From: Patescibacteria group bacterium
GTDB taxonomy: Bacteria; Patescibacteriota; Minisyncoccia; Phycocordibacterales; Zambryskibacteraceae
Direction: 5' to 3'
Assembly (NCBI GenBank): GCA_004322205.1
Contig: SCSN01000007.1
Location: forward strand, 1 to 58,823
Length of the DNA stretch: 58,823 bases
Part shown: positions 1-58,652 of the stretch, piece by piece
Position numbering within the stretch: the first letter of the stretch is position 1
Layout of the letters: every line of letters starts with the position of its first letter
The notes under the pieces: generated by a model
What the model saw: only the letters and a program-made list of their open reading frames with translations
Told to the model about the DNA's origin: nothing
Databases searched by the model: none
Translations under genes and position numbers: made by a program

Positions 1-187
1 TCAGAAAAAGCGGAGAACATTTTTTTGCGGGACACGCGAGCGGAGCGAGCGGTGGTGGGGCTGATTCATTCGTTCACCGATTTTGAAAATAGGTTCTAAC
101 TTGGTACAATAAATACACCAGAAAATTCTAACCATATACACACTGGGTCCTAGGTTCGAATCCTAGAGGGTGGACTGCTGTCAGAGG

Positions 188-2131: not shown

Positions 2132-2179
2132 AAGTAGAACGATTATACACGAACTCTCCCATTTTGCTATTATTGCCTT

Positions 2180-2623: not shown

Positions 2624-2672
2624 AGAGGTTTCACCCCCAGAAAAAGAACTTGAAAAATCAAATTCTTTTTCT

Positions 2673-3073
2673 GGGGGTGAACCGCTTCGACAAAAAAGTA
2701 ACGCAGAGCAACGCAAGAGGGAGCTGCAGTAACTCCTTAATCTGCTGCAAACGATAACTGCAAACAGCGTTGTCGCAAAGGCAAAGTCAATTCTTTCTCC
2801 ATTCGGAGCGAATGACCTTGCTTTCGCCACAGCTCGAGGTTAACTCGCTCTGGCGACGTCAACTCTTGTGAAGTCTGATAGCAAGATGTTGGTGTAATAT
2901 TCTCGGACTCTGAAGAATTGCGTCCCGCCTTTCTTCGAAACTGTAGGGACTCGATACTGTAAGGTTTTGTTTGCTTCCTACTTACAACATCTAGACTTCT
3001 GAAACAAACTAACTCTTGTAGAAGTTGTTAGGCGGCTTTTTTGGACGGGAGTTCGTTACTCCCCACCTCCACA
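2673..3073 (+). ncRNA. ssrA: tmRNA (SsrA), one-piece
   Basis: 5' GGGGGTG pairs with 3' CACCTCC (3064-3070), including the G3:U alanine identity pair. T-arm GGGAG-TTCGTTA-CTCCC, discriminator A. Internal candidate tag frames start GCA AAC GAT AAC (2747) or GCG AAT GAC (2808). Follows smpB. Confidence 0.85.
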
Positions 3074-3080
3074 ATAAAAA

Positions 3081-3117
3081 CTGCCCCTGCCATGGCGGGG
3101 GCAGTTTTTCTGTTTTT
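3081..3117 (+). terminator. Rho-independent terminator after ssrA
   Basis: Stem ctgcccc..ggggcag with inner gcc/ggc pairs, followed by tttttctgttttt. Confidence 0.8.
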
Positions 3118-3131
3118 AATAAAAGCATAGA

Positions 3132-3159
3132 TTGTAGAGCTATCTAATTGTGTTATGAT
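3132..3159 (+). promoter_or_regulatory. Sigma70-like promoter of the radical SAM gene
   Basis: TTGTAG, 16-nt spacer, TGtTATGAT (extended -10). GGAG lies 6 nt before the ATG at 3213. Confidence 0.5.
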
Positions 3160-3212
3160 GACAACAGAACGTACCATAACAGCTTGCGTTTTCACTTCGA
3201 CTGGAGACGGAA

Positions 3213-4181
3213 ATGACCACCATTATGGAACGGGTTGACAGAACGGCCAGGATCCCGCCCACACATCTGCGCGTGGATCCGCCGCCACCGCGCTCAATCA
3301 AGATCGAGATCACCGGCGTCTGCAACCTGCGTTGCGGCTTCTGTGCCCTCACAAAGCGACCGATCCAACCAACGAAGCCGATGGAGTGGGGACTCCTCGA
3401 GCGACTCATCCGAGAGAGTCGGGAGTTCGGAATCGAGGAAATCGGGGCTTTCTACATCGGAGAATCGTTTACGGCCACCGACGAGCTTGTCGCCACAGTC
3501 AGACTCGGGAAGGAGGTCGGTTACAAAAACCGATTCCTGACTTCAAACGCGACTATCTCGACACCGGAGCGGGTGAGAGCGGCAATCGAGGCAGGACTCA
3601 CTTCCCTCAAATGGAGTGTCAACAACGCGAACGCAAAACAATTCGCTGAGGTGACGCAGAGACCCGAGCGTCTGTTCTACATGGCGCTCGAGAACATCAA
3701 GGCGGCCCTGGCAGTTCGTGACGAAGTTTTCAGACGGACAGGGCACTGGTGCGAGCTCTCCGCCTCAAGCATCCGCTACAATGCGGAGCAGATGAGGCTC
3801 ATGCAACCGTTTCTTGAGAAGCATGTCCTGCCCTTCGTCGATCATCACTACAAGCTTCCGCCTTACACCATGGGCGGACCGCCGATCGATCAAGAGCTCC
3901 AACTCGGCATCATTCCAACAGCCGGCAATCAAGGTCGGATTGGTGCTCTTGTCGATCCAATCCCCTGCTGGGCAGTCTTCAACGAGGCGCATGTTACCTC
4001 GTCGGGCATGCTCACCGCCTGCTGCTTCGATGCCGACGGCTCATGGACAATGGCCGACCTGAAAAAGGTTCCCCTTGCGACTGGCTGGCACAGCGATGTT
4101 TTCAAGACACTGCGCCTAGCGCATCTCAAGGGCGATGTCCGAGGTACGGTCTGCGAAAGGTGCGCCCTCTACGTGGGCTAG
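3213..4181 (+). CDS. Radical SAM protein with Cys-rich C-terminal (SPASM/twitch-like) region
   Basis: 322-aa ORF with CxxxCxxC (VCNLRCGFCAL) near the N-terminus and C-terminal cysteines (CW.., TACCFD, CERC). Visibly GC-richer than its neighbours. Confidence 0.85.
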   Translation: MTTIMERVDRTARIPPTHLRVDPPPPRSIKIEITGVCNLRCGFCALTKRPIQPTKPMEWGLLERLIRESREFGIEEIGAFYIGESFTATDELVATVRLGKEVGYKNRFLTSNATISTPERVRAAIEAGLTSLKWSVNNANAKQFAEVTQRPERLFYMALENIKAALAVRDEVFRRTGHWCELSASSIRYNAEQMRLMQPFLEKHVLPFVDHHYKLPPYTMGGPPIDQELQLGIIPTAGNQGRIGALVDPIPCWAVFNEAHVTSSGMLTACCFDADGSWTMADLKKVPLATGWHSDVFKTLRLAHLKGDVRGTVCERCALYVG

Positions 4182-4202
4182 CGGGAGTAAGAACGCAAGA
4201 CA

Positions 4203-4243
4203 AACGCCGCTCTCGTTTTCACGAGAAGCGGCGTTTTCCTTTT
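4203..4243. terminator. Bidirectional hairpin terminator between convergent genes
   Basis: aacgccgctctcg / cgagaagcggcgtt stem followed by ttttcctttt. Confidence 0.75.
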
Positions 4244-4257
4244 ACCCAAAAATTCTT

Positions 4258-5967
4258 TTACTTTCCCAAGAACGGTTCTATAAAAGCCGAGATGACATTT
4301 GCCATCAAACTTCTGACATTGGCACGGAAGAAACTTGTTGGAGCGGGCTCGGAAGGAGGTGGGGTAATGTAACCTTCAGGTGGCTGATAGCCCTCCGGCG
4401 GTTGATACGACCCGCCCTGATAGTCTGGCGGAGGGGAATAGCTCGACGGGTACTGACTTCCATCAGGTGGTGGGGGAAAGGCGTCGGGCGGCGGATAACT
4501 TCCCTGATATTGTCCGGAGGGGTATTGACCTCCCGGCGGCGGGAAGCCTCCTTGTGACTCTCTGTTATATTGCGAGCGGAATTCTTCCTGACGCTCTCGC
4601 ATCATTTTCTCCATCTCTTCCCTGCTCATATTCGGCGGAAATTGCCCAATCCCCTCGCCACCGCGAAACTGCTCTGACGGAGGATGTTGGCCGACTCCCG
4701 ACTCACCTCTTCTGAGCTGGGAAGGAGGGCTTGAACCTTCCGGGGGACGGAAGCGATTGCAGACTTCGGCATTGGCGGGGTCGGAGCAGAAATTGCGGCA
4801 CTCTTCCGGAGTCTTACATCCGCCCGGACCATTCATCGTCCCCGGCCCGACACTGGGAGGGAAACTACCTTCTCCCCTAAACTCACCTTCATTCTCACCT
4901 TCTCCTCGACGAGTGCTGAAATACTGCTCAAAGCACTGGTGCATCTTCTCGCCAAGCTCTCGTGACGGAGGTCGAGCGCCGTTTTCAATCTGACTCAAAA
5001 CTTCACTGCCCACCGTGTCCTTGAGACATTGAACAACCTCCGGCGGAGCATTCGTCAAACCTTCTCGAAATTGGGACATTCCCTCTTTCATGCGCTCCCG
5101 CTCCTCCGGCGGAATAAGGTCGTGCTCTTCGGCAAATTTGAAACACTCGTCCTGATGTTCTTGACAGTAGGCTTCACACTGCTCCTTACCGCGGCAGCCG
5201 CCGGGACCCTTGCCGCCAGTTTTCCGAATCATTTCTGCTTCTTCGGGCGGGATTATTCCTGCCTCAAGCCCAAATTGAATGCACTTTTGAAGTACCTCAT
5301 CACTCTGGGGATTCTCACATTGCTCAAACTCCTTTGGGGAACGGAAGGGTGCTTTCCCCTCTTCTATCAGACGAAACATCTTCTCTGCCTTCTCTCTATC
5401 CACGTTCGGCGGCAAGAAACCAGCTTTTTCAGCAAAGGCGAAACACTCTCGAGCCACCGCTACTGTCTGCGGGTCCTCGCAAGTTGCGCGGCATGACTCC
5501 TTATTGGTACACCCGGCCGGGAGTTTCGCCCCCTGATCAAGGGCGCGAATGACCCTCTCCGCCTCTTCGAGTTCACCGCCGCTCATGAGACCGTGGTTCT
5601 TGGCATAGACAACACATTCTCGGATATTGGTTGTGGTGTTGCAGTACGTCTCGCAGCTTGCCTCTGGATTTGCCGCTCCAACGGCACACTGCCCCGGACC
5701 GCCATCCTCTAGAATCACATCAAACTTATCATCACGATCTTGAGAGACATCAAGCCCGTGCTTGGCCGCGAAGGCTTGGCAGGCGGAAATATTCGCCGGA
5801 GCGTCACAGTAAACCCTGCACTCACCTTCATTGGCGCAATTGCCAAGCTCCGGGACGGGAAAGGTGATATCAAACGGCGAGTTGGCAAAAGCACCGGAAA
5901 CGAAAAGAGTGAAAATAAAAAATGCGGTCAAAAAAACCGCACTACTCAAAAGGATTCTTGTATTCAT
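4258..5967 (-). CDS. Secreted Cys-rich modular repeat protein with Pro/Gly/Tyr/Gln-rich tail
   Basis: 569-aa ORF with an N-terminal signal/TM segment. At least 6 modules of C-x5-10-C-x3-C-x6-11-C followed by F/YA..HG/AG(L/F). C-terminal about 120 aa is low-complexity PPxGxY/Q. Confidence 0.75.
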   Translation of the reverse strand: MNTRILLSSAVFLTAFFIFTLFVSGAFANSPFDITFPVPELGNCANEGECRVYCDAPANISACQAFAAKHGLDVSQDRDDKFDVILEDGGPGQCAVGAANPEASCETYCNTTTNIRECVVYAKNHGLMSGGELEEAERVIRALDQGAKLPAGCTNKESCRATCEDPQTVAVARECFAFAEKAGFLPPNVDREKAEKMFRLIEEGKAPFRSPKEFEQCENPQSDEVLQKCIQFGLEAGIIPPEEAEMIRKTGGKGPGGCRGKEQCEAYCQEHQDECFKFAEEHDLIPPEERERMKEGMSQFREGLTNAPPEVVQCLKDTVGSEVLSQIENGARPPSRELGEKMHQCFEQYFSTRRGEGENEGEFRGEGSFPPSVGPGTMNGPGGCKTPEECRNFCSDPANAEVCNRFRPPEGSSPPSQLRRGESGVGQHPPSEQFRGGEGIGQFPPNMSREEMEKMMRERQEEFRSQYNRESQGGFPPPGGQYPSGQYQGSYPPPDAFPPPPDGSQYPSSYSPPPDYQGGSYQPPEGYQPPEGYITPPPSEPAPTSFFRANVRSLMANVISAFIEPFLGK

Positions 5968-6208
5968 TTTTGAACGGATTAGTTTTTTCGATCGGATTCA
6001 CGGGAGTGGTCACTTTATCAAGCGGATTGGCGCTTGGAGCAACGACGGAGGTTTGGCCGACCGCTTGCTCGAGCGCCGAGGAGAGATCTTGAACCGCCTC
6101 CCTCCCGCCCGCCGGTTTCCGTAAGACCGCCGCCCAGTAGACAAGAGCAATGATAACCAGCGCTGACAGGACAACGACGACAGCGATGGTTTGATTTTTA
6201 TTCATCAT
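5942..6208 (-). CDS. Small membrane-anchored protein
   Basis: 88-aa ORF with one N-terminal TM helix (IAVVVVLSALVIIALVYWAAV). Its 3' end overlaps the start of the downstream Cys-rich gene. Confidence 0.5.
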   Translation of the reverse strand: MMNKNQTIAVVVVLSALVIIALVYWAAVLRKPAGGREAVQDLSSALEQAVGQTSVVAPSANPLDKVTTPVNPIEKTNPFKNEYKNPFE

Positions 6209-6413
6209 GTTTATTTCGACGAGCGAGGAGTGCCGCGCAAACGTCCTCGTTTACATGGCGTCCGAACGAAGTCGAAACAAAGGGTTAATACTCTTTATAA
6301 TACCACCCTCAACTCCGCTTCAAGCGGTGAAATCCACAGTTGCGATAGCCTCTCGCAGTGGTCTGACGTTTTGTTTTTGGTCAAAACCCTATATACTCCT
6401 TAGCATTCAAGAA

Positions 6414-6485
6414 GCACCCTTAGCTCAGTGGTAGAGCGCTCCCTTCACACGGGAGAGGCCGTAAGTTCGATCCTTACAGGGTGCA
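6414..6485 (+). tRNA. tRNA-Val (anticodon CAC)
   Basis: Manual cloverleaf: acceptor gcaccct/agggtgc, D arm gctc-agtggta-gagc, anticodon arm ctccc-ttCACac-gggag, T arm gtaag-ttcgatc-cttac. Confidence 0.9.
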
Positions 6486-6486
6486 T

Positions 6487-6559
6487 GGGCCGTTAGTTCA
6501 GTCAGCAGAACACTCGATTCGCATTCGAGAGGTCGCCGGTGCAATTCCGGCACGGTCCA
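6487..6559 (+). tRNA. tRNA-Ala (anticodon CGC)
   Basis: Acceptor gggccgt/acggtcc with G3:U70, anticodon arm ctcga-ttCGCat-tcgag, T arm gccgg-tgcaatt-ccggc. Confidence 0.9.
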
Positions 6560-6596
6560 CTCGACCTTGCCGCATGTGGCAAAATTGACCGCCCAA

Positions 6597-6633
6597 ACAC
6601 AAAAGCCGCCTGCAGGCGGCTTTTGTGTTTTTG
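6597..6633 (+). terminator. Rho-independent terminator after the tRNA pair
   Basis: acacaaaagccgcc-tgca-ggcggcttttgtgt followed by a T run. Confidence 0.85.
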
Positions 6634-6689
6634 TGGAGCGTTTCCAGCAAGTCCGCTATAATAATTTCATTAACAATTAAGACAGCTCC

Positions 6690-7106
6690 GTGGAAACATT
6701 GATTAATTATCTGGCAGTTCTTGTAGGAGGGATTGCGGTAATTGCTATTGGAGCTCTGTGGTATTCCCCCTTGCTTTTCGGCAAACAGTGGGTGAAGCTC
6801 TCGGGCATAACCGAGGAGAAAATCAGAACCGCCAAAGCCAAGGGTATGGCCAAAGCATACATACTTCAGTTTCTTTTTGCCTTGCTCTCTGTCTATGTCC
6901 TTGCCCACCTTTCAGCCGTTCAAGGCGTCTCGACAGTAAGCGGTATCTGGTCTCTTGTCTTCTGGGTTTGGCTTGGCTTTCAAGTTCCCATCCAAATCGG
7001 CTCTGTACTCTGGGAAAATAAACCGTTTCAGCTTTTCGTCTTGAATGCCTTCCACGGACTGGTTGCGCTCCTCGGAGCGGGTATCGCACTCGTACTCATC
7101 AGGTAA
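6690..7106 (+). CDS. DUF1761-like integral membrane protein
   Basis: 138-aa ORF with 4 predicted TM helices. The N-terminus (GALWYSPLLFGKQW) resembles the DUF1761 family. GTG start. Confidence 0.6.
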   Translation: METLINYLAVLVGGIAVIAIGALWYSPLLFGKQWVKLSGITEEKIRTAKAKGMAKAYILQFLFALLSVYVLAHLSAVQGVSTVSGIWSLVFWVWLGFQVPIQIGSVLWENKPFQLFVLNAFHGLVALLGAGIALVLIR

Positions 7107-10224: not shown

Positions 10225-13200
10225 CTACCAGCCCCAGCCGGGATCGATGTTCCAGGCTCGCAGACGGCCCCACCACACTGATTGGGGTATGATCGGCCCT
10301 TGATTCATGTTTCGCCCCAGCGCCATTCCATATATTGAACTCCTGTTAATTACCGTGTTCTTGATTGACATAAGTGGAACGCCGTCTATCCTGATTTCCA
10401 TAAGACCATCTGGAACATTCGTAGCAGACGATACTTTCATGTGTTCTCTGATATAATGCCACTGGCCGTTAGTAATTACGCTCCACTGAATACTTGCTGG
10501 ACCCCCCGACAGGAAGAATTGTTCATTGTCGGGCGGGCCTCCTGAATAATTTCTTCTCGGTGGATTGCCTAGCCCTTGGCTACCTACGACTAGACTGAAT
10601 CTTGATACGCTAGGATACACTCTTCCAAATAGGAATTTATAACCATTTGATGAGACTCCAGTACATTGTTGAACATAAGTTTCAAACCCGGGAGTGAATT
10701 TAAACCATCCTTCAAACCAAACTTCCTTTTCTTGTTTAGGGAATTGTATATTTCTTCCTATAGTATAATCGCGACAAAGATTTGGATCATTTGTTCGGTC
10801 TGGGAAATCGTATCGCATGCTCTTTCCTGTCATTCCTGGCGGAGTATCAGTATCAAGAGCAATCCTATTTACACCCTTATCCTCATTAGCACCACTCCAC
10901 ATTGGGTTCGGATAGGCGAGAAGATCTGCTGTTGTTGAATAATTACTAAAGTCTTCTTCTATCCAAGGTTGTACTCCTGCAGTTACCTTTATGAGAAAAT
11001 CTTCCACGCTCCAGCCGTCAGGAAGAGAGGCGTAATATATATTCCACCAATTATATCCACCTGCTGCTACTGGACCGCCTCTGACTGTGCCTTGAGCGCC
11101 CAAAGCTTGAGTCCCAAGCAGAGTGCCATTTGGCATAGCTCTGACGTTGAGGAGGTTGGCGGTGGTTTGGACAAAATCTCCAATTTGGAATTTGGTTGAA
11201 GACGGTTGTGTCACGGTTACGGTAGTGCTCTGGTTTGTGGTTCCCCCACTTCCGGTACATGCGAGAGTGTAGGTAGTTGTGACTGCGGGAGTAACTAATT
11301 GACTTCCTGATGCGCTAGTTAATGTCGTCCAAGGTGCGAAGCATGAAGTAGCATTTATTGAACTCCATGTGAGGGTTGAAGGGCCGGCTGTTATTGAGGA
11401 AGGAGAAGCAAAGAGAGTGACGATGGGAGCCGAGATACCACTATTCACCGCCGTTCGCCATCTTGCAATATAAACGTAAGCATCCTGTAAGATTGGACTT
11501 GGTGAACCGTTTGTTGGGTTCCAAGTTAATCCGCGGAAACCGGGATTGCCAGTAGGGGGAGTTATCATAATATTCTGAGCGTTTATTCTCCTAACTCCGT
11601 CAACCCACAACTCAAATGATCCATCACTTTGCCCAGGCGTTCCGGCTCGAATACGACGCTCCACCAAATACCATTTACCAAGTGGCAAAAGCGCAAACGA
11701 GGTCGAGTACTGCTGTCCCAAACCAGTGTACGCTCCACCAAATTGCGTTGCGAACCCAAATTTAAATGCGTTTGGACCGTAGAAGCCAATAAAGTGGTTC
11801 GTCAATCCATTGTTTGGATTCTGCAAATAAAATCCAAATTTCGCTCCATTATTCTGGGCTGGCTCAACATAAGCTGGGTCGTGCATTATATAGAAAGCAT
11901 CATAGACATCAGAAAACACTTGCGAATTAGCAAATTGCAAATCCACCCTGAATGGCGCCGCGCCAGCCGGAGTTCCAGCGCCATACTTTCCTTCCAAAAC
12001 TTTGGTTTGTCCCGTTGGAGACAACGGCAGACCTTTTGTCACCAAATCAGCAATCGTAAATCTTCCAGCTCCCGAAGTTATAGTCCATAGACCATTAGAG
12101 ATACTACCGGTTGGCGGGACAGTTGTATTAAATGTTTCGTCAGAAATTACCGTGTGCCCTGATGGTTGGTTCGGGAATTGTACTGGTGTCGGTGTTGGGG
12201 TTGGGGTTGGGGTTGGGGTTGGGGTAGAGCCAGACCAGCCGGGATCTTGATCCCAGGTGCGCACACGTCCCCACTGCACTCGCACAACACTGTTGGCGGT
12301 CTGCTGATTCATATTAGCTCCCAGCGACCAGCTCCAGATCTTGCCGCCCTGTGCTGAAACAATGCCAGAATCATACTGAAGCACTCCGTCAAGCCATACC
12401 TGTAAGATTCCGCTGGAACCGCGCTTGGCGTGAAATCGGAAAGTGTGCGGCTGATTATCGGCGTATTTAGCCCATGAAGGTTTATTTAAGGTGACCGGTG
12501 AAAAACCCGGAACCTCGTAGCTTGTTTGGTGCGTCTGGAAAATTCCGATCATGTTTCCGAACCGCTGTGCACCAGATGGAGGTTGGGGCGACGTGATACG
12601 CGCAAAGATATATTTGTATGCGCTGCTGCTCTTTCCTACGCACTCGGGTGCGTAGGTCTCAAAGTTCACGAGTCGCACTTCGAACTCCCCCCAGACTTCG
12701 TCCAAAGGACGGCCGGTTCCGCCCGCAACGCCCGTGCCAAAGTCCATGTTGGGACCAATTGAGTGATCTATACAATTAGCCGTAGCGCCACGTTGGAACT
12801 TGTATTCCATGTAAGCGCCGTTCGAACCGAAGCCGGGAATCCACTCTGAATCAAGACCCTTGGCAGGATCGTTGTCTATGTATTGGTAACGCAAGAAAAC
12901 ACTGTTCGGATCATCCGCAGGTTCGTTCGTCCAGACACCATTAGGATTGGAAGCGCTATAAATGTCCGAGAGCATAGCCGTCTTGGTATTCCAGCGGCTG
13001 AATTGAATATCTTGGAATGGCTGAACCGATGCAGAAGACACGCTAACCGTAGCAGATTGACTAGCACTTCCTCCCGCTCCTATACAAGTAAGAGTGTAAG
13101 TAGTGTTTACTGTCGGTGAAACTAATTGAGTTCCCGAGATTGCTTTTGTTCCTGACCATCCACTACTTGCCGTGCATGAAGTGGCATTGGTTGAGCTCCA

Positions 13201-14490
13201 AGTGAGAGTTGATGATTGGCCTGGTGTGATTGTGGTTGGTGGGGCGGTGAGGGTGACGGTAGGGGTAGGAGTCGGCGGAGAGCTGTAGACAGCACTGACT
13301 TTTGCTGCGTATGGGCAAAATCGCTTCCCCAACCATTGAGAAAGAGTGGACTCTACATAGGATGGTCTGGCATCACAAACTTCCATGAAGACCTGGCCTA
13401 GAACTATGGTGGAAGGATCAAGATGCCAGCTCCAAGGCGAATTAAATCCCCCGTTACTTGAATTAATAATACCACTGACAATCAAACTTCTTGACCCGTT
13501 AAGATCATTGAGCGCTTGTTGAACAGTGGCTGGATCAGTCATTTTAACAAGAAACGATTCATTCTGGTTGTCTATCATGACGTACTTGAAGTATTTTGCG
13601 GTAGTTTGAGTGGTGACTGTCACGGTTGCGCTCTGACTGGCTGATCCACCCGAGCCGGTGCAGGTCAGAGTGTAGGTGGTGGTAATTGTCGGAAAGAAAA
13701 TTTGGGAGCCGGAGATTGAGCGCGAGCCGCTCCAGCCATTACTTGCCGTACAACTTGTGGCATTGGTTGAGCTCCATGTGAGTGTTGATGATTGACCGGA
13801 AGTTATTGAGGAAGGAAAAGCGGAGAAGGTGAGAGTGGGTGAGGGGGTGGGAGTTGGTGAGGGAGATGGAATCTCTGAAGAAACAGTGACTGTCACGCCC
13901 CGGCTTGCAGTTCCCCCGCGGCCGGTGCAAGAGAGGGTATAGAGAGTGGTGGTGGTCGGGAAGAAAGATTGCTCGCCGGAGGTTGAACGTGACCCGTCCC
14001 ATCCGCCGGAAGCGCTACAAGAGGTGGAGTTGGTGGAGGACCAAGTCAGAGTGACAGCTTGACCTGAAGTAATAGCGGCCCGGCTAGCGCTCAAAACAAC
14101 GGACGGTTTTTCGGCTATCGGCTCTGTTCCCTTTTCAGAGGCGGTAGTGACGGTAACTGACTTTGAAACCGTACCGAAAGAAAGAGTGTAAGTGGTAGTT
14201 TGAAGAATGGGCTTGGTCACCTTGTCCCCTTTGTAATTAACAAAAAGGTTTGCAAACTGTCCGCCGTTCAATTTGCCGTCAGGACATGCGGAGCTTGCCT
14301 GCCAAGCGAGAACTACCTCCTGCCCCGCCGCGATTGAAGATGGGTTTGCAGTAAATGAGCTTATGGTGCAAAGCGATGAAGAAACTTCGGCGAGATTGCG
14401 CGAAGTGAGCGTGGAAATGAGAGTACTAATATTCTGAATAGCAAAAAGCAAAGCCGCCGCGATCGCCGCGGACAGGATTAAACGCTTCAT
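10225..14490 (-). CDS. Giant secreted multidomain surface protein
   Basis: 1421-aa ORF with a signal peptide. It has at least 6 copies of a ~90-aa Cys-pair Ig-like module (TLTWSSTNATSC..GW.GS....TTYTL.C.G.GG), an SH3b-like segment and PT linkers. Two paralogous ~260-aa jelly-roll-like modules end in WGR(V/L)R(T/A)W..DPGW, and a third related module ends YIARWRTAV. Confidence 0.85.
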   Translation of the reverse strand: MKRLILSAAIAAALLFAIQNISTLISTLTSRNLAEVSSSLCTISSFTANPSSIAAGQEVVLAWQASSACPDGKLNGGQFANLFVNYKGDKVTKPILQTTTYTLSFGTVSKSVTVTTASEKGTEPIAEKPSVVLSASRAAITSGQAVTLTWSSTNSTSCSASGGWDGSRSTSGEQSFFPTTTTLYTLSCTGRGGTASRGVTVTVSSEIPSPSPTPTPSPTLTFSAFPSSITSGQSSTLTWSSTNATSCTASNGWSGSRSISGSQIFFPTITTTYTLTCTGSGGSASQSATVTVTTQTTAKYFKYVMIDNQNESFLVKMTDPATVQQALNDLNGSRSLIVSGIINSSNGGFNSPWSWHLDPSTIVLGQVFMEVCDARPSYVESTLSQWLGKRFCPYAAKVSAVYSSPPTPTPTVTLTAPPTTITPGQSSTLTWSSTNATSCTASSGWSGTKAISGTQLVSPTVNTTYTLTCIGAGGSASQSATVSVSSASVQPFQDIQFSRWNTKTAMLSDIYSASNPNGVWTNEPADDPNSVFLRYQYIDNDPAKGLDSEWIPGFGSNGAYMEYKFQRGATANCIDHSIGPNMDFGTGVAGGTGRPLDEVWGEFEVRLVNFETYAPECVGKSSSAYKYIFARITSPQPPSGAQRFGNMIGIFQTHQTSYEVPGFSPVTLNKPSWAKYADNQPHTFRFHAKRGSSGILQVWLDGVLQYDSGIVSAQGGKIWSWSLGANMNQQTANSVVRVQWGRVRTWDQDPGWSGSTPTPTPTPTPTPTPVQFPNQPSGHTVISDETFNTTVPPTGSISNGLWTITSGAGRFTIADLVTKGLPLSPTGQTKVLEGKYGAGTPAGAAPFRVDLQFANSQVFSDVYDAFYIMHDPAYVEPAQNNGAKFGFYLQNPNNGLTNHFIGFYGPNAFKFGFATQFGGAYTGLGQQYSTSFALLPLGKWYLVERRIRAGTPGQSDGSFELWVDGVRRINAQNIMITPPTGNPGFRGLTWNPTNGSPSPILQDAYVYIARWRTAVNSGISAPIVTLFASPSSITAGPSTLTWSSINATSCFAPWTTLTSASGSQLVTPAVTTTYTLACTGSGGTTNQSTTVTVTQPSSTKFQIGDFVQTTANLLNVRAMPNGTLLGTQALGAQGTVRGGPVAAGGYNWWNIYYASLPDGWSVEDFLIKVTAGVQPWIEEDFSNYSTTADLLAYPNPMWSGANEDKGVNRIALDTDTPPGMTGKSMRYDFPDRTNDPNLCRDYTIGRNIQFPKQEKEVWFEGWFKFTPGFETYVQQCTGVSSNGYKFLFGRVYPSVSRFSLVVGSQGLGNPPRRNYSGGPPDNEQFFLSGGPASIQWSVITNGQWHYIREHMKVSSATNVPDGLMEIRIDGVPLMSIKNTVINRSSIYGMALGRNMNQGPIIPQSVWWGRLRAWNIDPGWGW
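12185..12226. repeat. Hexanucleotide microsatellite (GGKGTY)7 encoding a (PT)7 linker
   Basis: ggtgtc ggtgtt then ggggtt x4 and ggggta, in frame inside the giant ORF. Confidence 0.9.
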
Positions 14491-21476: not shown

Positions 21477-21526
21477 GCCAATATTATACGAACGATACGA
21501 GCGAAGTGAGCAAATAAAATTGAGCA

Positions 21527-21654
21527 CCCCCCACTAACTTTTCCACTCACCAGCCTCGATTTCTCGTCCCATGGACGAAAAATCATTTTTAATACCAGCA
21601 TGATATATAAATTATTCTTCATATAAATCATTGTTCTGAAAAGTTAGTGGGGGG
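21527..21654. repeat. Family-A intergenic hairpin element (copy A1) between rpsH and rplF
   Basis: 17-bp perfect terminal inverted repeat ccccccactaacttttc / gaaaagttagtgggggg. Internal hairpin tcgtcc-cat-ggacga. Conserved aaatcattgttctgaaaagt end. Confidence 0.8.
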
Positions 21655-21705
21655 TAGAGTTTCGCAATCTCTGTTTGCTTCAGCAAGCAAACAGAGGGCG
21701 AATTC

Positions 21706-23822: not shown

Positions 23823-23863
23823 GCCAATATTATATGAGCGAAGCGAATAATAATATTGAGCAT

Positions 23864-23990
23864 CCCCCACTTACTTTTCCCCTCAAAACAAGCGATTTTT
23901 TGTCTTGCAGACAAAAAATCATTTTCAATTCTTGCACGTAATCTAAATTAACGTTTTTGTAAATCATTGTTCTGAAAAGTAAGTGGGGGG
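23864..23990. repeat. Family-A intergenic hairpin element (copy A2) between rpsQ and rplN
   Basis: Terminal inverted repeat cccccacttacttttc / gaaaagtaagtggggg. Internal 12-bp perfect hairpin gattttttgtct-tgc-agacaaaaaatc. About 85% identical to copy A3 by eye. Confidence 0.85.
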
Positions 23991-24005
23991 TTGTGTAATT
24001 CATGG

Positions 24006-24257
24006 TCACTGCGTTTCTTGAATTACAACAAAGTGTTTGTGCTTCGAAATCGGTTTTGTCTCTTGAATCACCACCTTCTCGCCAACCTTCCGAACGTTTC
24101 CCGGATCATGCGCCTTGTATTTTTTCCGATATTCGATGTATTTGCCGTAGCGCGGATGCCTGACGTAGCGGCGCACAAGAACAACCACCGTGTCTTTCAT
24201 CTTGTCCGAGATTACCACTCCAGAAAACTTTTTCCCTTTTGTTTTTGTTTCCGCCAT
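24006..24257 (-). CDS. rpsQ: 30S ribosomal protein S17
   Basis: 83-aa ORF, typical S17. Confidence 0.95.
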   Translation of the reverse strand: MAETKTKGKKFSGVVISDKMKDTVVVLVRRYVRHPRYGKYIEYRKKYKAHDPGNVRKVGEKVVIQETKPISKHKHFVVIQETQ

Positions 24258-25978: not shown

Positions 25979-26332
25979 TTATTTCGATTCTTGGGAACTT
26001 TGAGTGGGGGCGGCCTTGGCAGCTTGGGCGGCGGCGATCTCCGCCTCACGCTTTTGCTGCTCAAGCTCTTTCTGGATTTTCCCTCCGTGCCGAACAAACT
26101 TGCGAGTCAGAGCAAATTCTCCCAGCCGGTGCCCCACCATATCTTCCGTCACAGAGACTTCAATATGCTCCTTGCCGTTGTGCACGCCAAAAGTAAAACC
26201 GACCATCTCGGGAGCAATCTGGCTATCTCTCGCCCAAGTGCGAATCACTCCGACCTTGTCAGGCTTTTTACCCTCAATTTTTTTGAGGAGTTTTTCGTAG
26301 ACGTACGGACCTTTCTTTGACGAGCGAGTCAT
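25979..26332 (-). CDS. rpsS: 30S ribosomal protein S19 with ~25-aa C-terminal extension
   Basis: [11 protein letters not shown].. from the ATG at 26332 inside track ORF 25979..26353. Confidence 0.93.
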
Positions 26333-26393
26333 ATTGAAAAAAGAAGCTCGCAAGAGCTTCGCAAGATACTAGCAAATGAGCCCTTCTTGTCAA
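26333..26393 (-). promoter_or_regulatory. Re-initiation promoter plus 5' hairpin-U6 immediately upstream of rpsS
   Basis: Minus strand: TTGACA (26388-26393), 16 nt, TAGTAT (26366-26371). Then GAAGCTC-ttgc-GAGCTTC (26343-26360), TTTTTT, caat, ATG. Confidence 0.5.
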
Positions 26394-26400
26394 ATTCTCC

Positions 26401-26440
26401 ATGAAAATACCCCAGCGTCCGCTTATGCGGCGCGCTGGGG
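26401..26440 (-). terminator. Hairpin terminator at the 3' end of the inserted gene
   Basis: CCCCAGCG..CCGC-ataa-GCGG..CGCTGGGG followed by tattttc. It overlaps the stop codon at 26423. Confidence 0.65.
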
Positions 26441-27070
26441 TATGCGCGGGAGGAACGGCCAGACGAGCCGAACCATTCCACCCCGCACTCGGAGAGCCCA
26501 ATCTGCTTTGAGCGGAACTGGGTTGTCTCCAATCCTCCGTCCCTTCCCATCCTTGCGCCATTGAAGTATGGACCCACCTAGAGAGTCGATGACCGGGATC
26601 CGATGTTCGAAGTTCATCGAAATCCAAGTCTGCTCCATGGTGTTCCGATACGCCCTCACTCGCCAAAAAGCATCGGCGAGCAGGCGCACCAGTTCCACCC
26701 GGGCGTCGCGCAAGCGCTTCACCTTTTGTTGATCGAGCTTTCGACCAAACCACGGTGGAAAGAAGACAAAGCGCAACATGTTGTAGCGCCGCCTGTCCTT
26801 ATCCAACCTTCGCTGGAACTGTACATCGGCAAGCCACCACCCTTCTAGCTCAAGATCAGCGAGAAGTTGGCGACCGGTGACCGGTTCTGTCTCGCGAATA
26901 AACTTAACACTCTTCCATTCGCGAGATTTGCGGGTTTCTACCTCCTTCTTTGATTCGTCGGAGAGTCGCCGAATCCAACATCGCGGAACCGCCTGGTCGT
27001 TAGAGAAGCTGAACTGCAGACGAAGCTCGTCCAGCTCCTGATCGAGCATTCCGGGAAACTCCAGAGACAT
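26423..27070 (-). CDS. Hypothetical 215-aa protein inserted between rplB and rpsS
   Basis: ATG at 27070 with GGAGGAG 6 nt upstream. Arg/Trp-rich, no motif recognised. Visibly GC-richer than the flanking r-protein genes. Confidence 0.7.
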   Translation of the reverse strand: MSLEFPGMLDQELDELRLQFSFSNDQAVPRCWIRRLSDESKKEVETRKSREWKSVKFIRETEPVTGRQLLADLELEGWWLADVQFQRRLDKDRRRYNMLRFVFFPPWFGRKLDQQKVKRLRDARVELVRLLADAFWRVRAYRNTMEQTWISMNFEHRIPVIDSLGGSILQWRKDGKGRRIGDNPVPLKADWALRVRGGMVRLVWPFLPRIPQRAA

Positions 27071-27130
27071 GGTTGTCTCCTCCAAAGTTGGTGGACAATA
27101 ATGGGATTAATTTCTAGGAACTCTTCTCTA

Positions 27131-27160
27131 ATTATATCATAACATATAATAATTTGTCAA
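27131..27160 (-). promoter_or_regulatory. Near-consensus sigma70 promoter of the inserted gene
   Basis: Minus strand: TTGACA (27155-27160), 18 nt, TATAAT (27131-27136). Confidence 0.6.
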
Positions 27161-27189
27161 TACCAAAACCAGCCCCTTGTTTAGGGCTG
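27161..27189 (-). terminator. Hairpin plus U-rich tract after rplB
   Basis: CAGCCC-taaacaag-GGGCTG followed by gttttggtatt on the minus strand. Confidence 0.55.
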
Positions 27190-27235
27190 ATTGATGTTTG
27201 CAAAACCCAAAGCCAAAGACACGAAGCTTAAAGTC

Positions 27236-28075
27236 CTAGCGTTTTCTTACCGCGCGGCGTTTGATTATGAACTTGTTGGAGTATTTTTTCGCTCGGCGAG
27301 ACTTTTGCCCTTTGCCGGTGGGTTTGCCGAAGACGCTAATCGCCCGGCGGCGCCCTCGCCCAGCTCTGCCTTCTCCTCCTCCATGAGGATGATCCACCGG
27401 ATTCATGGCCGTCCCGCGCACCGTCGGGCGAATGCCGAGCCAGCGGCTGCGCCCCGCTTTGCCGAGGCGCATCAGGCGATTTTCTTCATTGGAAACTTCT
27501 CCCACCGTCGCCCAGCAATTTTCAGAAACCATCCTCACTTCAGTTGAAGGCATTTTGAGATGAGCATAGCCTCCGTCTTTGGCAACAACTTCGATATAAT
27601 TGCCGCCGGAGCGCCCGAGTCTGGCACCCCCGCCCGGTTTCAGTTCAGTGTTATAAACAAACGTCCCGACGGGAATATTTTTAAGCGGCAGACGATTGCC
27701 AGAAGCAAGCGGGGCAGTTTCTGAAACAAGATAGGTGTCGCCAACCTTTGCGCTCTTGGGAAGCAATACGTAACGCCGCGACCCGTCTTTATAAACGGCA
27801 AGACCGACAAAGCCGCTGCGATTTGGATCATATTCAATTGTCCGCACAGTAAACGGAATGTCGCGTTTATCGTATACAAAATCAACAAGTCGGTAGAGAC
27901 GCTTGTGTCCGCCCCCTTTGTGGCGCACGGTAATTCTTCCTAAGCGGTTGCGGCCAACGGCGCGCTTTCTGCCGAAAGTTAGATGCTTCACCGGCTCGCC
28001 TGCCGTCACAGCGGCGCCGTAGGAGAGGGAAGTCATCTGGCGTCGTGATGGAGTTGTTGGTTTATACTGTTTCAT
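27236..28075 (-). CDS. rplB: 50S ribosomal protein L2
   Basis: 279-aa ORF, typical L2 (..MNPVDHPHGGGEGR..). Confidence 0.96.
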   Translation of the reverse strand: MKQYKPTTPSRRQMTSLSYGAAVTAGEPVKHLTFGRKRAVGRNRLGRITVRHKGGGHKRLYRLVDFVYDKRDIPFTVRTIEYDPNRSGFVGLAVYKDGSRRYVLLPKSAKVGDTYLVSETAPLASGNRLPLKNIPVGTFVYNTELKPGGGARLGRSGGNYIEVVAKDGGYAHLKMPSTEVRMVSENCWATVGEVSNEENRLMRLGKAGRSRWLGIRPTVRGTAMNPVDHPHGGGEGRAGRGRRRAISVFGKPTGKGQKSRRAKKYSNKFIIKRRAVRKR

Positions 28076-28121
28076 GTTAGAGATTGTTAGTGAGCGAACG
28101 CGAGCTTACAAGACTCTTACA

Positions 28122-28249
28122 CCCCTCACTTACTTTTCCTCTTAAAATAAGCGATTTTTTGTCTGCAAGACAAAAAATCATTTTCAACTCTTGCGTATAA
28201 CCCAAACTAACATTTTTGTAAATCATTGTTCTGAAAAGTAAGTGGGGGG
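28122..28249. repeat. Family-A intergenic hairpin element (copy A3) between rplW and rplB
   Basis: Terminal inverted repeat cccctcacttacttttc / gaaaagtaagtgggggg (one G:T). Internal hairpin gattttttgtct-gca-agacaaaaaatc. Confidence 0.85.
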
Positions 28250-28277
28250 TTGAGTAATTTATATTCACTTCGCTACG

Positions 28278-38845: not shown

Positions 38846-38893
38846 TCTTCTATTATAACGGGTGGCGCGGTGTATAATAGAGATTCATACACC

Positions 38894-39490
38894 ATGAAAC
38901 AGTTTGCCGAACAAAAATTTAATATCCCGGCGCTCAAGGGAATTTCCGCCAAAAATATTGAGGAGCATTTAAAGCTCTACGCGGGCTATGTCAAAAACGC
39001 CAATGCGGTTTTAGAGAAAATCGAAGAGTATAGGAAAGATTCGGAAAGGAACACTTTGGCGTTAGCGGAGCTTCAGAGACGTTTTGCTTTTGAATTCGAC
39101 GGCATGAGAAACCACGAATACTACTTCCGCTCGCTTGAAGGCGGCTCGACACCGCTCGCCACAGGCGGAGTATTACAAAAGGTAATTGAAGAGGAGTGGG
39201 GTTCGTTTGATAAGTGGCTTGCGATATTTAAATCAATTGCTCTAACGCGCGGCATCGGCTGGGCAGTGCTCTACTGGGATCCACAGACAAAGCAGCTACT
39301 CCGTCAGTGGATTGACGAACAGCATTTGGGGCATCTAAACGGCTTACCATGGATTTTGGGAATTGATATGTGGGAGCACGCTTTCGTTTACGATTATCAA
39401 CCGAGCGGCAAGAAAAATTATATCGAGGACTTCTTCCAAAATTTAAATTGGGGCGTTATTGAGAGAAACTTCACAGAAGCAACAAAGTAG
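38894..39490 (+). CDS. Fe/Mn superoxide dismutase family protein
   Basis: All four metal-ligand positions are present by alignment to E. coli FeSOD (IEEH, RNHEYYF, DMWEHAFVY). Confidence 0.8.
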   Translation: MKQFAEQKFNIPALKGISAKNIEEHLKLYAGYVKNANAVLEKIEEYRKDSERNTLALAELQRRFAFEFDGMRNHEYYFRSLEGGSTPLATGGVLQKVIEEEWGSFDKWLAIFKSIALTRGIGWAVLYWDPQTKQLLRQWIDEQHLGHLNGLPWILGIDMWEHAFVYDYQPSGKKNYIEDFFQNLNWGVIERNFTEATK

Positions 39491-39501: not shown

Positions 39502-41028
39502 TCAGGATAAAAGAACTTGCGCCTGGCGCGCTCTTTTATTTTTGTAAATTCTCCAAAGCATAAATCCATACAGGGCAAAGATAAACCACATAAGAGCGGC
39601 GGGGAAAAAAGTAAGAGAAACCGCAGCAAAAGGAAGAGAGGAAAACCATTCAACAACTTTCAGAACGTAAGTGAGCAAAAATTGCGCAATGATCGCGAAA
39701 GGAAAGGCAAGAAAGCCAGCGAGAAAACCGAGAAGACCGGCAAAAAATCCAAAGAACATTATGACAGGGACAATCGGCAGAACCAAAAGATTGACGGGAA
39801 GCGAAACAACTGAAAATAAACCGGTCTTGTACAAAAGAAGCGGCAGAACGAAAAGCTGGGTGGCTACTGTGTCGGAGACAATTGTTCGCAAGGCGAACTT
39901 CTCTGTAATACGCGAAAATTTTTCACCTAAGAGAGGCGCAATCCAGATGAGAGCAACGGTGGCAAGAAATGAAAGTTCAAAGCCCGTGTCAAAGACAAGT
40001 ACTTTTGGATTCCAGAGCACCATGGCGCAGGCTGCGATGACAAGCCCGCGCGCCACATGGTAGGTTCTGCCCGTGGCGCGAGCGAGTAGCACCAGAATCG
40101 CCATAAGCGAAGCTCGAACGACAGAGGGCGCGCCGCCGACCATAATGGCAAAGAGAACAATGCCAAGGGCAGAGGCGGCCAATGACACTCTGCGCGAGAG
40201 AAAACAGAGGCGAGAGAGAAGCCAGAGGATAGAACTCGCCACCAGTGTTATGTTGTAGCCGGAAAGCACCACGATATGGATGATGCCGGTCGTCCGAAAA
40301 GTTTGCTCCAAATCCTTGCCAAGCGAGCTTTCCGTGCCGAGGATAATCCCGGAGAGAAGCGATGAGGCCGGCTCGGTAATTCTTCTCTCAAAATTCCCAA
40401 TGAAGCGGAACTTGACAGTCAGAAGCGCCCGTTTGACTGGGCTGCCCCCACCTTCCGCAACAAGTTCGCCCGAGGCGAAAGAAAGAATGAGGTAGATATC
40501 GTCTTTGGCAAGGTAAGCGGCGTAGTCAAAAATGCGGCCGCCTTCTTCAATGGCCCCCGGCCGGTCGAGTCTGCCGGAAAATTTCACTTCGTCACCGTAG
40601 TCAAACTGCGGATACAGCTCTGCTCTAACTAGAATCTTCTCGCCGTCGAATTCAGATGCCCTAATAATGTAGAGTTCATAGGTCTCGCGATGCTCCGGCT
40701 CCTCGACAACGACTCCCGTGACAGAGGCGCGTTCTCCAACCCGCTCGAGAAGCGCCGGATGGGGAGCGGAGAGATCTTTGACTTCGTAGCGCGCCACTCC
40801 GACCGCGAAAAACAAAAGCGTAAGAGCAATGATTTTGAAAATTCTCTGCGTCTCCGCCTCTGCGACTTTTAGCCATCTATAGAGAAACAACAGAGCAGAA
40901 AGGAAGACAAAAAAGATCGCCGTGCTGAAGCTGAAATTGGAAAACGAAGAGATAAAAACACCAAAGAGAAAGGTTCCGGAAGCAAGAAGAAAGATATTTC
41001 TGCCTAGGAGCGCAATTCCTTTTTCCAT
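39502..41028 (-). CDS. comEC: ComEC/Rec2 DNA-uptake channel (DUF4131 plus competence TM domain), lacking the MBL domain
   Basis: 508-aa polytopic ORF with the OB-like segment (ERASVTGVVVEEPE..) followed by about 10 TM helices. Confidence 0.8.
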   Translation of the reverse strand: MEKGIALLGRNIFLLASGTFLFGVFISSFSNFSFSTAIFFVFLSALLFLYRWLKVAEAETQRIFKIIALTLLFFAVGVARYEVKDLSAPHPALLERVGERASVTGVVVEEPEHRETYELYIIRASEFDGEKILVRAELYPQFDYGDEVKFSGRLDRPGAIEEGGRIFDYAAYLAKDDIYLILSFASGELVAEGGGSPVKRALLTVKFRFIGNFERRITEPASSLLSGIILGTESSLGKDLEQTFRTTGIIHIVVLSGYNITLVASSILWLLSRLCFLSRRVSLAASALGIVLFAIMVGGAPSVVRASLMAILVLLARATGRTYHVARGLVIAACAMVLWNPKVLVFDTGFELSFLATVALIWIAPLLGEKFSRITEKFALRTIVSDTVATQLFVLPLLLYKTGLFSVVSLPVNLLVLPIVPVIMFFGFFAGLLGFLAGFLAFPFAIIAQFLLTYVLKVVEWFSSLPFAAVSLTFFPAALMWFIFALYGFMLWRIYKNKRARQAQVLLS

Positions 41029-41786
41029 GTTTCAATAGTATCGTTCTCCTCCTCAAGAGAAAAAGTTTTTTTGAATTTTGCACCGGAGACGCCTTTTACC
41101 CTCTTCTCGCACTCTGCCCAGGTTTTGTAAGTTTTAATGATTCCGTTAACCAAACTAACGTAAGAATAAGCTTTTTTCGTAGATCGTGGAGCGTGGAACG
41201 TGGAGCGTTTGAGGATGGTGGAGGCCGAAATATCTATTCCGTATTTCTTAAGAAAACCAGAATAGAGTTTTGATCTCTTGCCGCCTGCCCTGCCGGCAGG
41301 CAGGTCCGCGAACATTGTGGCAATCTCGTCGCATCGCTCATTTGCGGCAATTCCAGAGTGTCCGGGCAACAATTTCCATTCGATCTTCAGACCTTTGCTT
41401 ACCTTCAAGAACCTTCTCCACAAATCTTGGTTCTCCACCTTCTTCTTTGTCTTTGTTTTCCATTTACTTTTTACCCACCCGTGAACCCACGTCCCGGCGC
41501 CGTTTAGAACATAGCTAGAATCCAGATAAACTTTTAACCTATAACTTTTAACTTGCAACTTTTTTACAAATTCAAGCGCCTTTATTAGCGCCGTCAGTTC
41601 CATCCGGTTGTTGGTTGTTCTTTCAACTCCGCTCCCTAATTCCTGAACCCATTCCTGATTCTTTATTCTTAATTCTTTATTCCGCATTGTAATTTTGCCC
41701 GCTGGCAAAATTACAATGCTTCCCCACCCTCCCGGTCCGGGATTACCACGTGAAGCACCATCAGTAAAAATAGTTATCTTCTGCAT
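41004..41786 (-). CDS. rnhA: Ribonuclease HI fused to a C-terminal hybrid-binding (viroplasmin-like) domain
   Basis: FTDGASRGNPG, NNRMELTA, YLDSSYV, GHSG..NERCDEIA. The C-terminal YSYVSLVNGIIKTYKTWAECEKRVKGVSGAKFKKF resembles the RNase H1 HBD. Confidence 0.85.
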   Translation of the reverse strand: MQKITIFTDGASRGNPGPGGWGSIVILPAGKITMRNKELRIKNQEWVQELGSGVERTTNNRMELTALIKALEFVKKLQVKSYRLKVYLDSSYVLNGAGTWVHGWVKSKWKTKTKKKVENQDLWRRFLKVSKGLKIEWKLLPGHSGIAANERCDEIATMFADLPAGRAGGKRSKLYSGFLKKYGIDISASTILKRSTFHAPRSTKKAYSYVSLVNGIIKTYKTWAECEKRVKGVSGAKFKKTFSLEEENDTIETWKKELRS

Positions 41787-52435: not shown

Positions 52436-52491
52436 GATTATCAACCGACAACCGGCAACCAAAAGCTGATGACTTTTGTATTATTCGCAGA

Positions 52492-52522
52492 CATTCGTAT
52501 CATTCGCACTATTCGTATATTC
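52492..52522. repeat. 31-nt element cattcgtatcattcgcaYtattcgtatattc (copy 1), between pilB and pilC
   Basis: 30/31 identical to 58653-58683. Both copies lie 50-57 nt upstream of a minus-strand start codon. Confidence 0.7.
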
Positions 52523-58603: not shown

Positions 58604-58652
58604 GATGATGTAAATAACTTATAAAATGAGCTTTTTAAAGAATATTCGTAGC

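Follow-up and report, generated by a model that had tools for sequence, protein, structure and literature searches.

An undescribed protein family at the rplB–rpsS junction of a Patescibacteria S10 ribosomal protein cluster

The adjacency of rplB and rpsS, the genes for ribosomal proteins (r-proteins) L2 and S19, is among the most conserved gene orders in bacteria. In the DNA analysed here, 58,823 nucleotides of contig SCSN01000007.1 (assembly GCA_004322205.1) from a Patescibacteria group bacterium (Zambryskibacteraceae), referred to below as the window, the stop codon of rplB and the start codon of rpsS lie 903 nucleotides apart, a gap that an initial annotation had put at about 860 bp. The interval holds a 215-amino-acid (aa) open reading frame (ORF) at 26423–27070 on the minus strand, named here gene X, which that annotation took for a laterally acquired, autonomously expressed gene of foreign appearance. 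How did a gene come to lie at this junction, and what might its product do? Gene X belongs to a large conserved family, its closest homologues occupy the same interval in relatives, and rplB and rpsS are separated in almost the whole clade. We think it probable that gene X has occupied a lineage-specific operon break since ancestral times and is dispensable there, and that it is not a recent insertion.

Gene X and its protein family

To judge from homologue searches, gene X is only seemingly an orphan. A word-index search of 5.8 billion proteins with the gene X protein matched that protein itself only. An exhaustive HMMER (phmmer) search of 1.84 billion cluster representatives returned 319 homologues at E <= 1e-3, counted as clusters at 50% identity, and 136 at E <= 1e-10. 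That the first search saw only its query where the second gave hundreds of relatives is a practical warning. Members of this family, family X, are nearly all 190–246 aa long and align end to end. Residues 5–207 of gene X align with the best homologue, P0002 (P-numbers denote family X homologue proteins), at E = 2.6e-36, and the window ORF matches a hidden Markov model of the family at E = 3.7e-62. Members are always annotated 'hypothetical protein' at source, and none carries a fused domain or shows a Pfam domain among its precomputed annotations. Where an organism is given, it is Liptonbacteria, Minisyncoccales, 'bacterium' or, in one case, a metagenome-assembled genome labelled Pacearchaeota; the rest of the sources are metagenome contigs.

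The ORF, in which the initial annotation had found no motif and which it had called foreign-looking, thus belongs to a large family with a motif set of its own: LQFSFSN, E-T, R-K, GY.LVDA..Q.R, Y.MVRF.F, A.WRVRA..NP, S.NLEAR.P and DG.P..W.KD..G.R.G..P.P. Over 150 family X sequences W136 is invariant, and R47, R88, R100, R137, R139 and R157 are near-invariant, together with Q19, N143 and N153. E39 is the only acidic residue at >= 90% conservation, and the family alignments contain no conserved Cys/His/Asp set of the kind found in enzymes. The window protein keeps Q19, E39, R47, R88, R100, F103, W136, R137, R139, N143, N153, R157, P159, G165, W171, G181 and P184; the sole conserved residue changed is P144 of the 'NP' motif, which is replaced (RNT). 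The loop after this site is about nine residues shorter in the window protein, as it is in P0003, P0005 and P0009.

The ratio of nonsynonymous to synonymous substitution rates (dN/dS) is 0.11–0.30 for the least saturated homologue pairs, showing that family X is under purifying selection. The gene X protein has no hydrophobic or transmembrane segment (maximum Kyte–Doolittle value, KD19, of 0.64), and its isoelectric point (pI), 10.6, marks the upper end of the family range (4.9–10.6, median 8.6). Gene X truly codes for a protein, one of a so far undescribed family whose members are soluble and about 200 aa long. No match to the gene X protein was found in Pfam, NCBIfam, PHROGs or PADLOC, and 57 family X members gave nothing consistent against Pfam, PADLOC and PHROGs; the PADLOC matches among them were three different one-member matches at E >= 0.003. 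PDB sequences gave 0 matches, whether searched with the gene X protein alone or with the family profile. A search of the literature found no description of family X or of a break between rplB and rpsS.

The rplB–rpsS junction in related genomes

Spacer lengths were compared in 80 loci, all taken from GTDB representative genomes. Their L2 proteins share 63–77% identity with that of the window, and their records are titled Zambryskibacteria, Parcubacteria, Paceibacterota or Minisyncoccia, or bear the generic label 'Saccharibacteria'. The rplW–rplB junction has a median spacer of 16 nucleotides (80 loci, one spacer longer than 200), and the rpsS–rplV junction a median of 9 nucleotides (52 loci, again one longer than 200). 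At the rplB–rpsS junction the median is 888 nucleotides (55 loci, range 52–5729), and 46 of these spacers exceed 200 nucleotides. In 18 more loci rpsS is absent from the 1–6 kb of available DNA 3' of rplB, and the break is present in 64 of the 73 informative loci. The conserved adjacency that the initial annotation took as its premise therefore fails in this clade.

The contents of the slot differ among the relatives. About 21 loci carry L10, L7/L12, a 185-aa protein and an MscS-type membrane protein there, and in 10 loci L19 follows rplB; other cargo includes MazE/MazF, a LAGLIDADG protein and 131 singleton ORFs. Slots of four fetched loci (L-numbers denote fetched relative or metagenome loci), L031, L035, L044 and L056, contain ORFs of 88–149 aa with a weak C-terminal motif (AWE.YQK-like), which may form a second fast-evolving, slot-specific family in another subclade.

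In the window, rplB (27236–28075, minus strand, 279 aa) closes the upstream half of the S10 cluster. It is followed by a terminator-like hairpin with a U-rich tail (27167–27192, minus strand; 10-bp stem, free energy about -16 kcal/mol, z = -4.2 versus shuffled sequences), the hairpin and U-rich tract of the initial annotation, and equivalents are found in L138 and L148. The rpsS ORF (25979–26332, minus strand) would open a downstream transcription unit: it is preceded by a consensus promoter match, TTGACA-16-TAGTAT (26366–26393, minus strand), and, between this site and the ATG, by a leader hairpin with a 7-bp stem, GAAGCUC-UUGC-GAGCUUC plus U6 (26337–26360, minus strand), whose U6 tract stops 4 nucleotides before the ATG. 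The leader hairpin is an extra element, absent from the initial annotation. Among relatives, a promoter-like site of its own precedes rpsS in 30 of 58 loci, including some with spacers of only 101–143 nucleotides. The empty slots of L001, L014 and L015 show TTGACA-16/17-TAGTAT, AAGCTC-loop-GAGCTT and a U-rich tract in nearly the sequence of the window. Because the rpsS promoter occurs in such short, empty spacers, the 'restart' promoter is ancestral and did not arrive with the insert; the site itself lies where the initial annotation had placed it. The leader hairpin keeps its position across the clade while its stem varies (AAGCUC/GAGCUU, CAAGCG/CGCUUU, GUCCCGC/GCGGGAC), and could be an attenuator, a 5' stabilizer or a site of r-protein autoregulation.

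The closest relatives of gene X lie in the same slot. P0002 (41% identity) is located between rplB and rpsS in L138 and L139, within a complete S10-spc cluster. The layout of the window recurs there: in L138 the rplB stop codon is followed by the hairpin AAAAAGCCCCAGAAATGGGGCTTTTT, a TTGACA...TATAAT promoter, X and the hairpin ACACCAGGACTAAGTCCTGGTGTTTTT, and then by a TTGACA...TAAGAT promoter, a hairpin with a U-rich tract and the rpsS ATG. Identities between the window and L138 are 74% for L2, 86% for S19, 62% for L22, 51% for L23 and 41% for X. The second-best homologue, P0003 (42% identity), lies directly 3' of rplB in L148 and L149, where a hairpin comes first, then a TTGACT-17-TAAGAT promoter and then GGAGG. 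The real start codon of P0003 is a TTG that lies 5' of the called one; taking it restores the motif as LQFSFSQ. In the P0002 and P0003 loci X is followed by a terminator. The L148 slot also holds, 3' of X, two small ORFs that we read as HicAB-like; this reading is unconfirmed, and the one ORF that was scanned had no Pfam match.

Decayed copies appear in other relatives. The rplB–rpsS interval of L005 contains an N-terminal remnant of X of about 50 codons. L009, the nearest GTDB relative of L138 (78% identity over L3, L4, L23 and L2), has in its slot a 180-aa ORF with the degenerate motifs FRIGFVF and YWNVRVWRN, a weak match to family X (hhalign E = 1e-3, probability 22%). When the other slot ORFs (L021, L025, L053, L016 and others) were searched as hidden X homologues, only that of L009 gave even this weak signal. 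A neighbour-joining tree of L3, L4, L23 and L2 places the window in a single clade with L138, L148 and L009, which also includes L001, L014 and L015, with empty slots of 101–143 nucleotides, and L004, L019, L021 and L006, whose slots have other cargo. Read most simply, this distribution means that the clade ancestor already carried X in the slot and that X was later lost or replaced several times. X would be dispensable, because several close relatives have lost it.

Nothing in the composition of gene X sets it apart. The initial annotation had the insert GC-richer than its flanks. GC content is 0.56 in gene X, 0.55 in rplB and 0.52 in rpsS, and GC at third codon positions (GC3) is 0.63, 0.54 and 0.57 respectively, within the range of the window, whose other genes reach 0.58 and 0.69. 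In a leave-one-out test over the window genes the synonymous codon choice of gene X is not deviant (z = -0.97, rank 12 of 51). Composition and codon usage are native to the window. No direct or inverted repeats or target-site duplication were found to bound the insert, and no integrase, transposase or tRNA gene lies beside it. The family has no match in IMG/VR (motif scan), in INPHARED phages or in PLSDB plasmids. Together with the absence of PADLOC and PHROG matches and the decayed copies in relatives, these results speak against the foreign origin that the initial annotation had proposed. Elsewhere in the window, the most foreign-looking gene is the 1421-aa ORF at 10225–14490 (minus strand; codon z = -11), which has internal repeats of about 50–120 nucleotides, and 41004–41786 and 38870–39490 are atypical in codon usage (z = -5.2 and -3.0) with GC contents of 0.44–0.45.

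Judged by its signals, the S10 cluster of this clade is two transcription units split at rplB–rpsS, with a terminator after rplB and a promoter and leader hairpin belonging to rpsS. In the stretch from the terminator of rplB to the promoter of rpsS, genes could be gained and dropped without polar effects; the slot tolerates cargo and turns over quickly. Gene X would have occupied it since the ancestor of one subclade, being kept in at least three lineages (the window, L138/L139 and L148/L149), decayed in others and lost in several. Some points weigh against this history. The tree rests on four proteins, has no support values and is indicative only. It is also possible that X was inserted independently into the same slot in different lineages, which we regard as unlikely. 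Lastly, the promoters and terminators of the locus are consensus matches.

Expression signals, predicted fold and possible roles

Gene X is the sole long ORF of the interval, and the ORF list contains no second one in the spacer. It carries a full set of candidate expression signals, all on the minus strand and all in agreement with the initial annotation: a sigma-70-type promoter, TTGACA-18-TATAAT with a TG extension (27131–27160), which matches the consensus at 12 of 12 positions and is the top site of a 10-kb promoter scan; a Shine–Dalgarno sequence, GGAGGAG (27077–27083), 6 nucleotides 5' of the ATG at 27070; and a terminator hairpin with a U tract (26404–26443). The stem of this GC-rich hairpin, of 11+4 bp at 26407–26443, has a predicted free energy of -29.9 kcal/mol (z = -4.5), with the TAA stop codon in the loop and UUUU following. 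An upstream GGAGG is rare in the window (about 5 of 51 genes), consistent with the earlier remark that neighbouring genes lack a Shine–Dalgarno sequence. Folding of the 5' untranslated region revealed no structure there (z = 0.45).

The same layout recurs throughout the family. The contexts of X were collected from 52 metagenome loci, found with a 16-sequence subset alignment as query, and 19 loci from an exact-protein look-up, and the signals of X were compared with those of the other genes of the same loci under an identical longest-ORF rule. A promoter matching at >= 10 of 12 positions within 200 nucleotides upstream is found for 23 of 42 X genes and 46 of 271 other genes; a GGAGG-type Shine–Dalgarno sequence for 22 of 42 and 24 of 271; and a hairpin with a T-tract 3' of the stop codon for 24 of 45 and 59 of 265. 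The promoters of the family are usually TTGACA-17-TATAAT-like and lie about 40–60 nucleotides before the start codon. These signals suggest high, constitutive, stand-alone expression. In the window, X would be transcribed alone, as a monocistronic unit, from a strong promoter and efficiently translated, so that its product is probably abundant. Since the stand-alone layout is family-wide, a self-contained cassette is no sign of foreign origin; of the initial proposal of an autonomously expressed, laterally acquired gene, the first half stands, as a family trait, and the second does not, given the native composition and the common slot.

The neighbours of X are diverse. X lies between a gene for an NYN-domain protein and that for ribosomal protein S1 in 11 loci, and adjoins alanyl-tRNA synthetase (AlaRS), with FtsK on its other side, in 8; it is also found between PBP2 and aspartyl-tRNA synthetase (AspRS), next to S2, and beside a gene resembling histidyl-tRNA synthetase (HisRS), TsaD, RpoB, UvrA, UvrB, SMC, Map/RuvX, thioredoxin reductase and UppS. 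No partner gene or small partner ORF is common to these contexts. Two loci have tandem X pairs; otherwise there is a single X per locus. Within a context X co-diverges with its neighbours (Spearman 0.35–0.91), but much faster: two loci that share 80% identity in AlaRS share 56% in X, and 79% in S1 goes with 40% in X. Copies from different contexts are 30–45% identical. In one set of metagenome contigs (L110, L119 and L120), L110 differs from L119 at 5 positions in 6 kb and then at 170 in 600 bp (about 6110–6700). The divergence between L110 and L119 begins at about codon 42 of X, L119 and L120 end just 3' of X, and the X of L119 resembles that of L121. Hypervariability of X was considered from this pair and dropped, as a recombination boundary or a chimeric assembly fits equally well.

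AlphaFold2 (AF2) gave an unusable model from the single gene X sequence (predicted local distance difference test, pLDDT, 43) and a confident one from an alignment of 57 sequences (pLDDT 93.2, predicted template modelling score, pTM, 0.88). The predicted elements are beta 15–22, alpha 41–49, beta 54–65, alpha 69–75, beta 79–89, beta 95–104, alpha 114–132, beta 134–143, beta 149–159 and four short strands within 169–203. Foldseek, the structural check suggested at the outset, gave no significant match to this model in PDB (best E = 0.27, template modelling score, TM, <= 0.15) or in BFVD (best E = 0.048), and 'new fold' is used below in the sense of unmatched in these two databases. Residues 54–143 are predicted to run beta-alpha-beta-beta-alpha-beta in the DSSP string, and the conserved arginines would alternate along the strands, both as in ferredoxin-like or RNA recognition motif (RRM)-type domains; the differences are that Foldseek finds no significant match and that X has four extra C-terminal strands. 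The likeness is a lead taken from the order of secondary-structure elements, and membership of X in the ferredoxin-like/RRM group is not supported.

What might such a protein do? Because its conserved set is one of Arg, Asn and Gln, and no catalytic Asp/His/Cys set is conserved, we tentatively suggest that X could be an abundant protein that binds nucleic acid (RNA or the ribosome) or phosphate groups. Binding would use a beta-sheet face with R88, R100, R137, R139 and R157 plus Q19, N143 and N153, and the guess excludes an enzyme that works through a classical acid/His catalytic site. The six near-invariant arginines beside a single well-conserved acidic residue, the lack of a transmembrane segment and the pI of 10.6 of this member also suit it. 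Several observations weigh against this guess. The spread of family pI, from 4.9 to 10.6, weakens the case for nucleic-acid binding, and there is no structural match to an RNA- or DNA-binding fold. The putative terminators would separate X from the r-protein transcripts, which speaks against stoichiometric co-expression. Translation-related genes (S1, S2, L2/S19, AlaRS, AspRS, HisRS-like, TsaD, Map) make up about one-quarter of X neighbours, a frequency little above that expected by chance in a small genome of the candidate phyla radiation (CPR), and are not used as evidence of function. A narrower form of the proposal makes X an abundantly expressed, Paceibacteria-specific protein of new fold that binds RNA or the ribosome and could act as a lineage-specific ribosomal, hibernation or RNA-chaperone protein; it seems to us rather improbable. 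X has no similarity to ribosomal proteins or ribosome factors in PDB sequences or by Foldseek, and the consensus signals do not predict co-transcription with r-protein genes. If it were true, X would complement the reduced translation apparatus of the CPR, and the rplB–rpsS, S1, S2 and tRNA-synthetase neighbourhoods would be a trace of that role.

The alternative that fares best keeps the same history of the locus and changes the role: X may instead bind something other than nucleic acid, as an abundant stress protein, structural protein or binder of a small-molecule or phosphorylated ligand, or be an enzyme with an unconventional site. This is a possibility that we hold no less tentatively than the binding guess. 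The wide pI range, the lack of an RNA- or DNA-binding fold match, the absence of co-transcription with r-protein genes by consensus signals and the heterogeneous neighbours all suit it, and clusters of conserved Arg, Asn and Gln would also suit phosphate or nucleotide ligands. Nothing specific speaks against such a role; a Cys/His/Asp set of enzyme type is not conserved.

That X is a single-gene anti-phage defence or toxin gene in a variable rplB–rpsS island is improbable. The initial annotation had named a toxin and a defence gene, beside a ribosome-associated factor, as candidate roles, and the results favour neither of the first two. MazEF occurs in the slot of relatives, as do the two putative HicAB-like ORFs of L148, X evolves fast compared with its neighbours and has been lost in several relatives as a dispensable gene might be, and one contig pair has a sharp divergence boundary inside X. 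Against this stand the lack of a consistent PADLOC match among 57 members and of a conserved partner gene, dN/dS values that indicate purifying and not diversifying selection, and synteny that is stable within lineages, beside S1, AlaRS and AspRS. Pfam revealed no nuclease, nucleoside triphosphatase (NTPase) or pore motif in gene X or its family, and a lone toxin with a consensus promoter and a strong Shine–Dalgarno sequence would be lethal.

Recent lateral acquisition, in which a foreign cassette with its own signals entered an intact S10 operon, is largely refuted. It would account for the promoter, Shine–Dalgarno sequence and terminators of the cassette, for a Shine–Dalgarno sequence atypical of the genome, for a slot that varies between genomes and for the many contexts of the family. 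It does not sit with native codon usage and GC, or with an insert lacking target-site duplication, terminal repeats, integrase and tRNA. The closest homologues, moreover, share the slot in lineages whose L2 is only 72–74% identical, decayed copies occupy it in other relatives, X co-diverges with its neighbours (Spearman up to 0.91), and the rpsS promoter predates the insert.

Still less credit is due to the idea of a selfish, free-standing element that, in the manner of a homing endonuclease gene, has conserved housekeeping genes as its targets. Such an element would be a self-contained cassette; X lies always between highly conserved genes (L2/S19, S1, S2, AlaRS, AspRS, RpoB, UvrA/B), and LAGLIDADG ORFs are found in the slot of relatives. 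Pfam revealed no GIY-YIG, HNH, LAGLIDADG or PD-(D/E)XK signature in any of 57 members, however, and a single acidic residue reaches 90% conservation. An identity of 30–45% between contexts gives no sign of recent spread, and X co-diverges with its neighbours and is single-copy save for the two tandem pairs. CPR genes are mostly housekeeping genes, so such neighbours are expected by chance. Finally, a spurious ORF in a non-coding spacer, for which the word-index result might speak, is refuted by 319 homologue clusters, purifying selection, a confident fold prediction and native codon usage. An ancestral, dispensable occupant of a lineage-specific operon break remains the account of gene X that we favour.

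Other elements of the window and comparison with known systems

An AT-rich element, its core about 135–160 nucleotides long, is present in three copies on the minus strand (28105–28255, 23846–23996 and 21510–21660), located in the r-protein spacers rplW–rplB, rpsQ–rplN and rpsH–rplF. It is closed by an 18-bp stem, ACCCCCCACUUACUUUUC / GGAAAAGUAAGUGGGGGGU, with a 12-bp hairpin inside, and the copies have compensatory changes at four pairs. No Rfam match was found, nor a copy in any fetched locus; the element could be a repeat resembling a miniature inverted-repeat transposable element (MITE) or a structured RNA. Two copies (23830–24009 and 28077–28268) contain a 59–63-aa ORF, probably spurious. 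The window also carries a transfer-messenger RNA (tmRNA) gene (2673–3074, plus strand; 100.9 bits), its only tRNA genes, the adjacent tRNA-Val(CAC) and tRNA-Ala(CGC) (6414–6560, plus strand), and an intergenic 41-nucleotide direct repeat of TATTCG-like units (52482–52522 and 58643–58683; 93% identical, 6.1 kb apart).

A seeming orphan thus defines a sizeable family, of at least 319 clusters, for which Pfam, NCBIfam, PHROGs and PADLOC hold no model. Its signals suggest that it ranks among the more strongly expressed stand-alone genes of Paceibacteria, and it is a sensible structural and biochemical target for CPR biology. A break between rplB and rpsS in almost the whole of this clade within the CPR matters for operon evolution, and also wherever r-protein synteny is relied on to bin or curate CPR genomes.

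In kind, the case is a familiar one: a conserved hypothetical gene, specific to a lineage, occupies a break in an operon. The unfamiliar particulars are a cargo slot inside S10 that is shared by a clade, a confident fold without a match and unusually strong stand-alone signals. Free-standing homing endonuclease genes between conserved genes, such as the seg and mob genes of phage T4, which serve here as a lead only, resemble gene X as compact promoter–terminator cassettes wedged between conserved genes. Unlike them, X lacks nuclease motifs, diverges vertically with its neighbours, is under purifying selection and has no recent copies. Breaks and internal promoters are seen in the evolution of the S10-spc-alpha r-protein cluster, and the likeness to the present locus lies in the splitting of the cluster into transcription units by a terminator and a new promoter. 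The differences are that the break described here falls inside the S10 operon, between rplB and rpsS, and is shared by almost the whole clade; that it is a cargo slot with fast turnover, from 52 nucleotides to more than 6 kb; and that one subclade carries the L10–L7/L12 operon as its cargo.

The nearest comparison for the family itself is with the CPR-enriched protein families of unknown function (Meheust et al., 2019; PMC6744442), among which family X may be included. Like them, it comes from Patescibacteria or CPR-type sources, occurs in many genomes and has no functional annotation. It differs in having a defined motif set, a confidently predicted fold that is unmatched in PDB and BFVD, and a layout for stand-alone expression.

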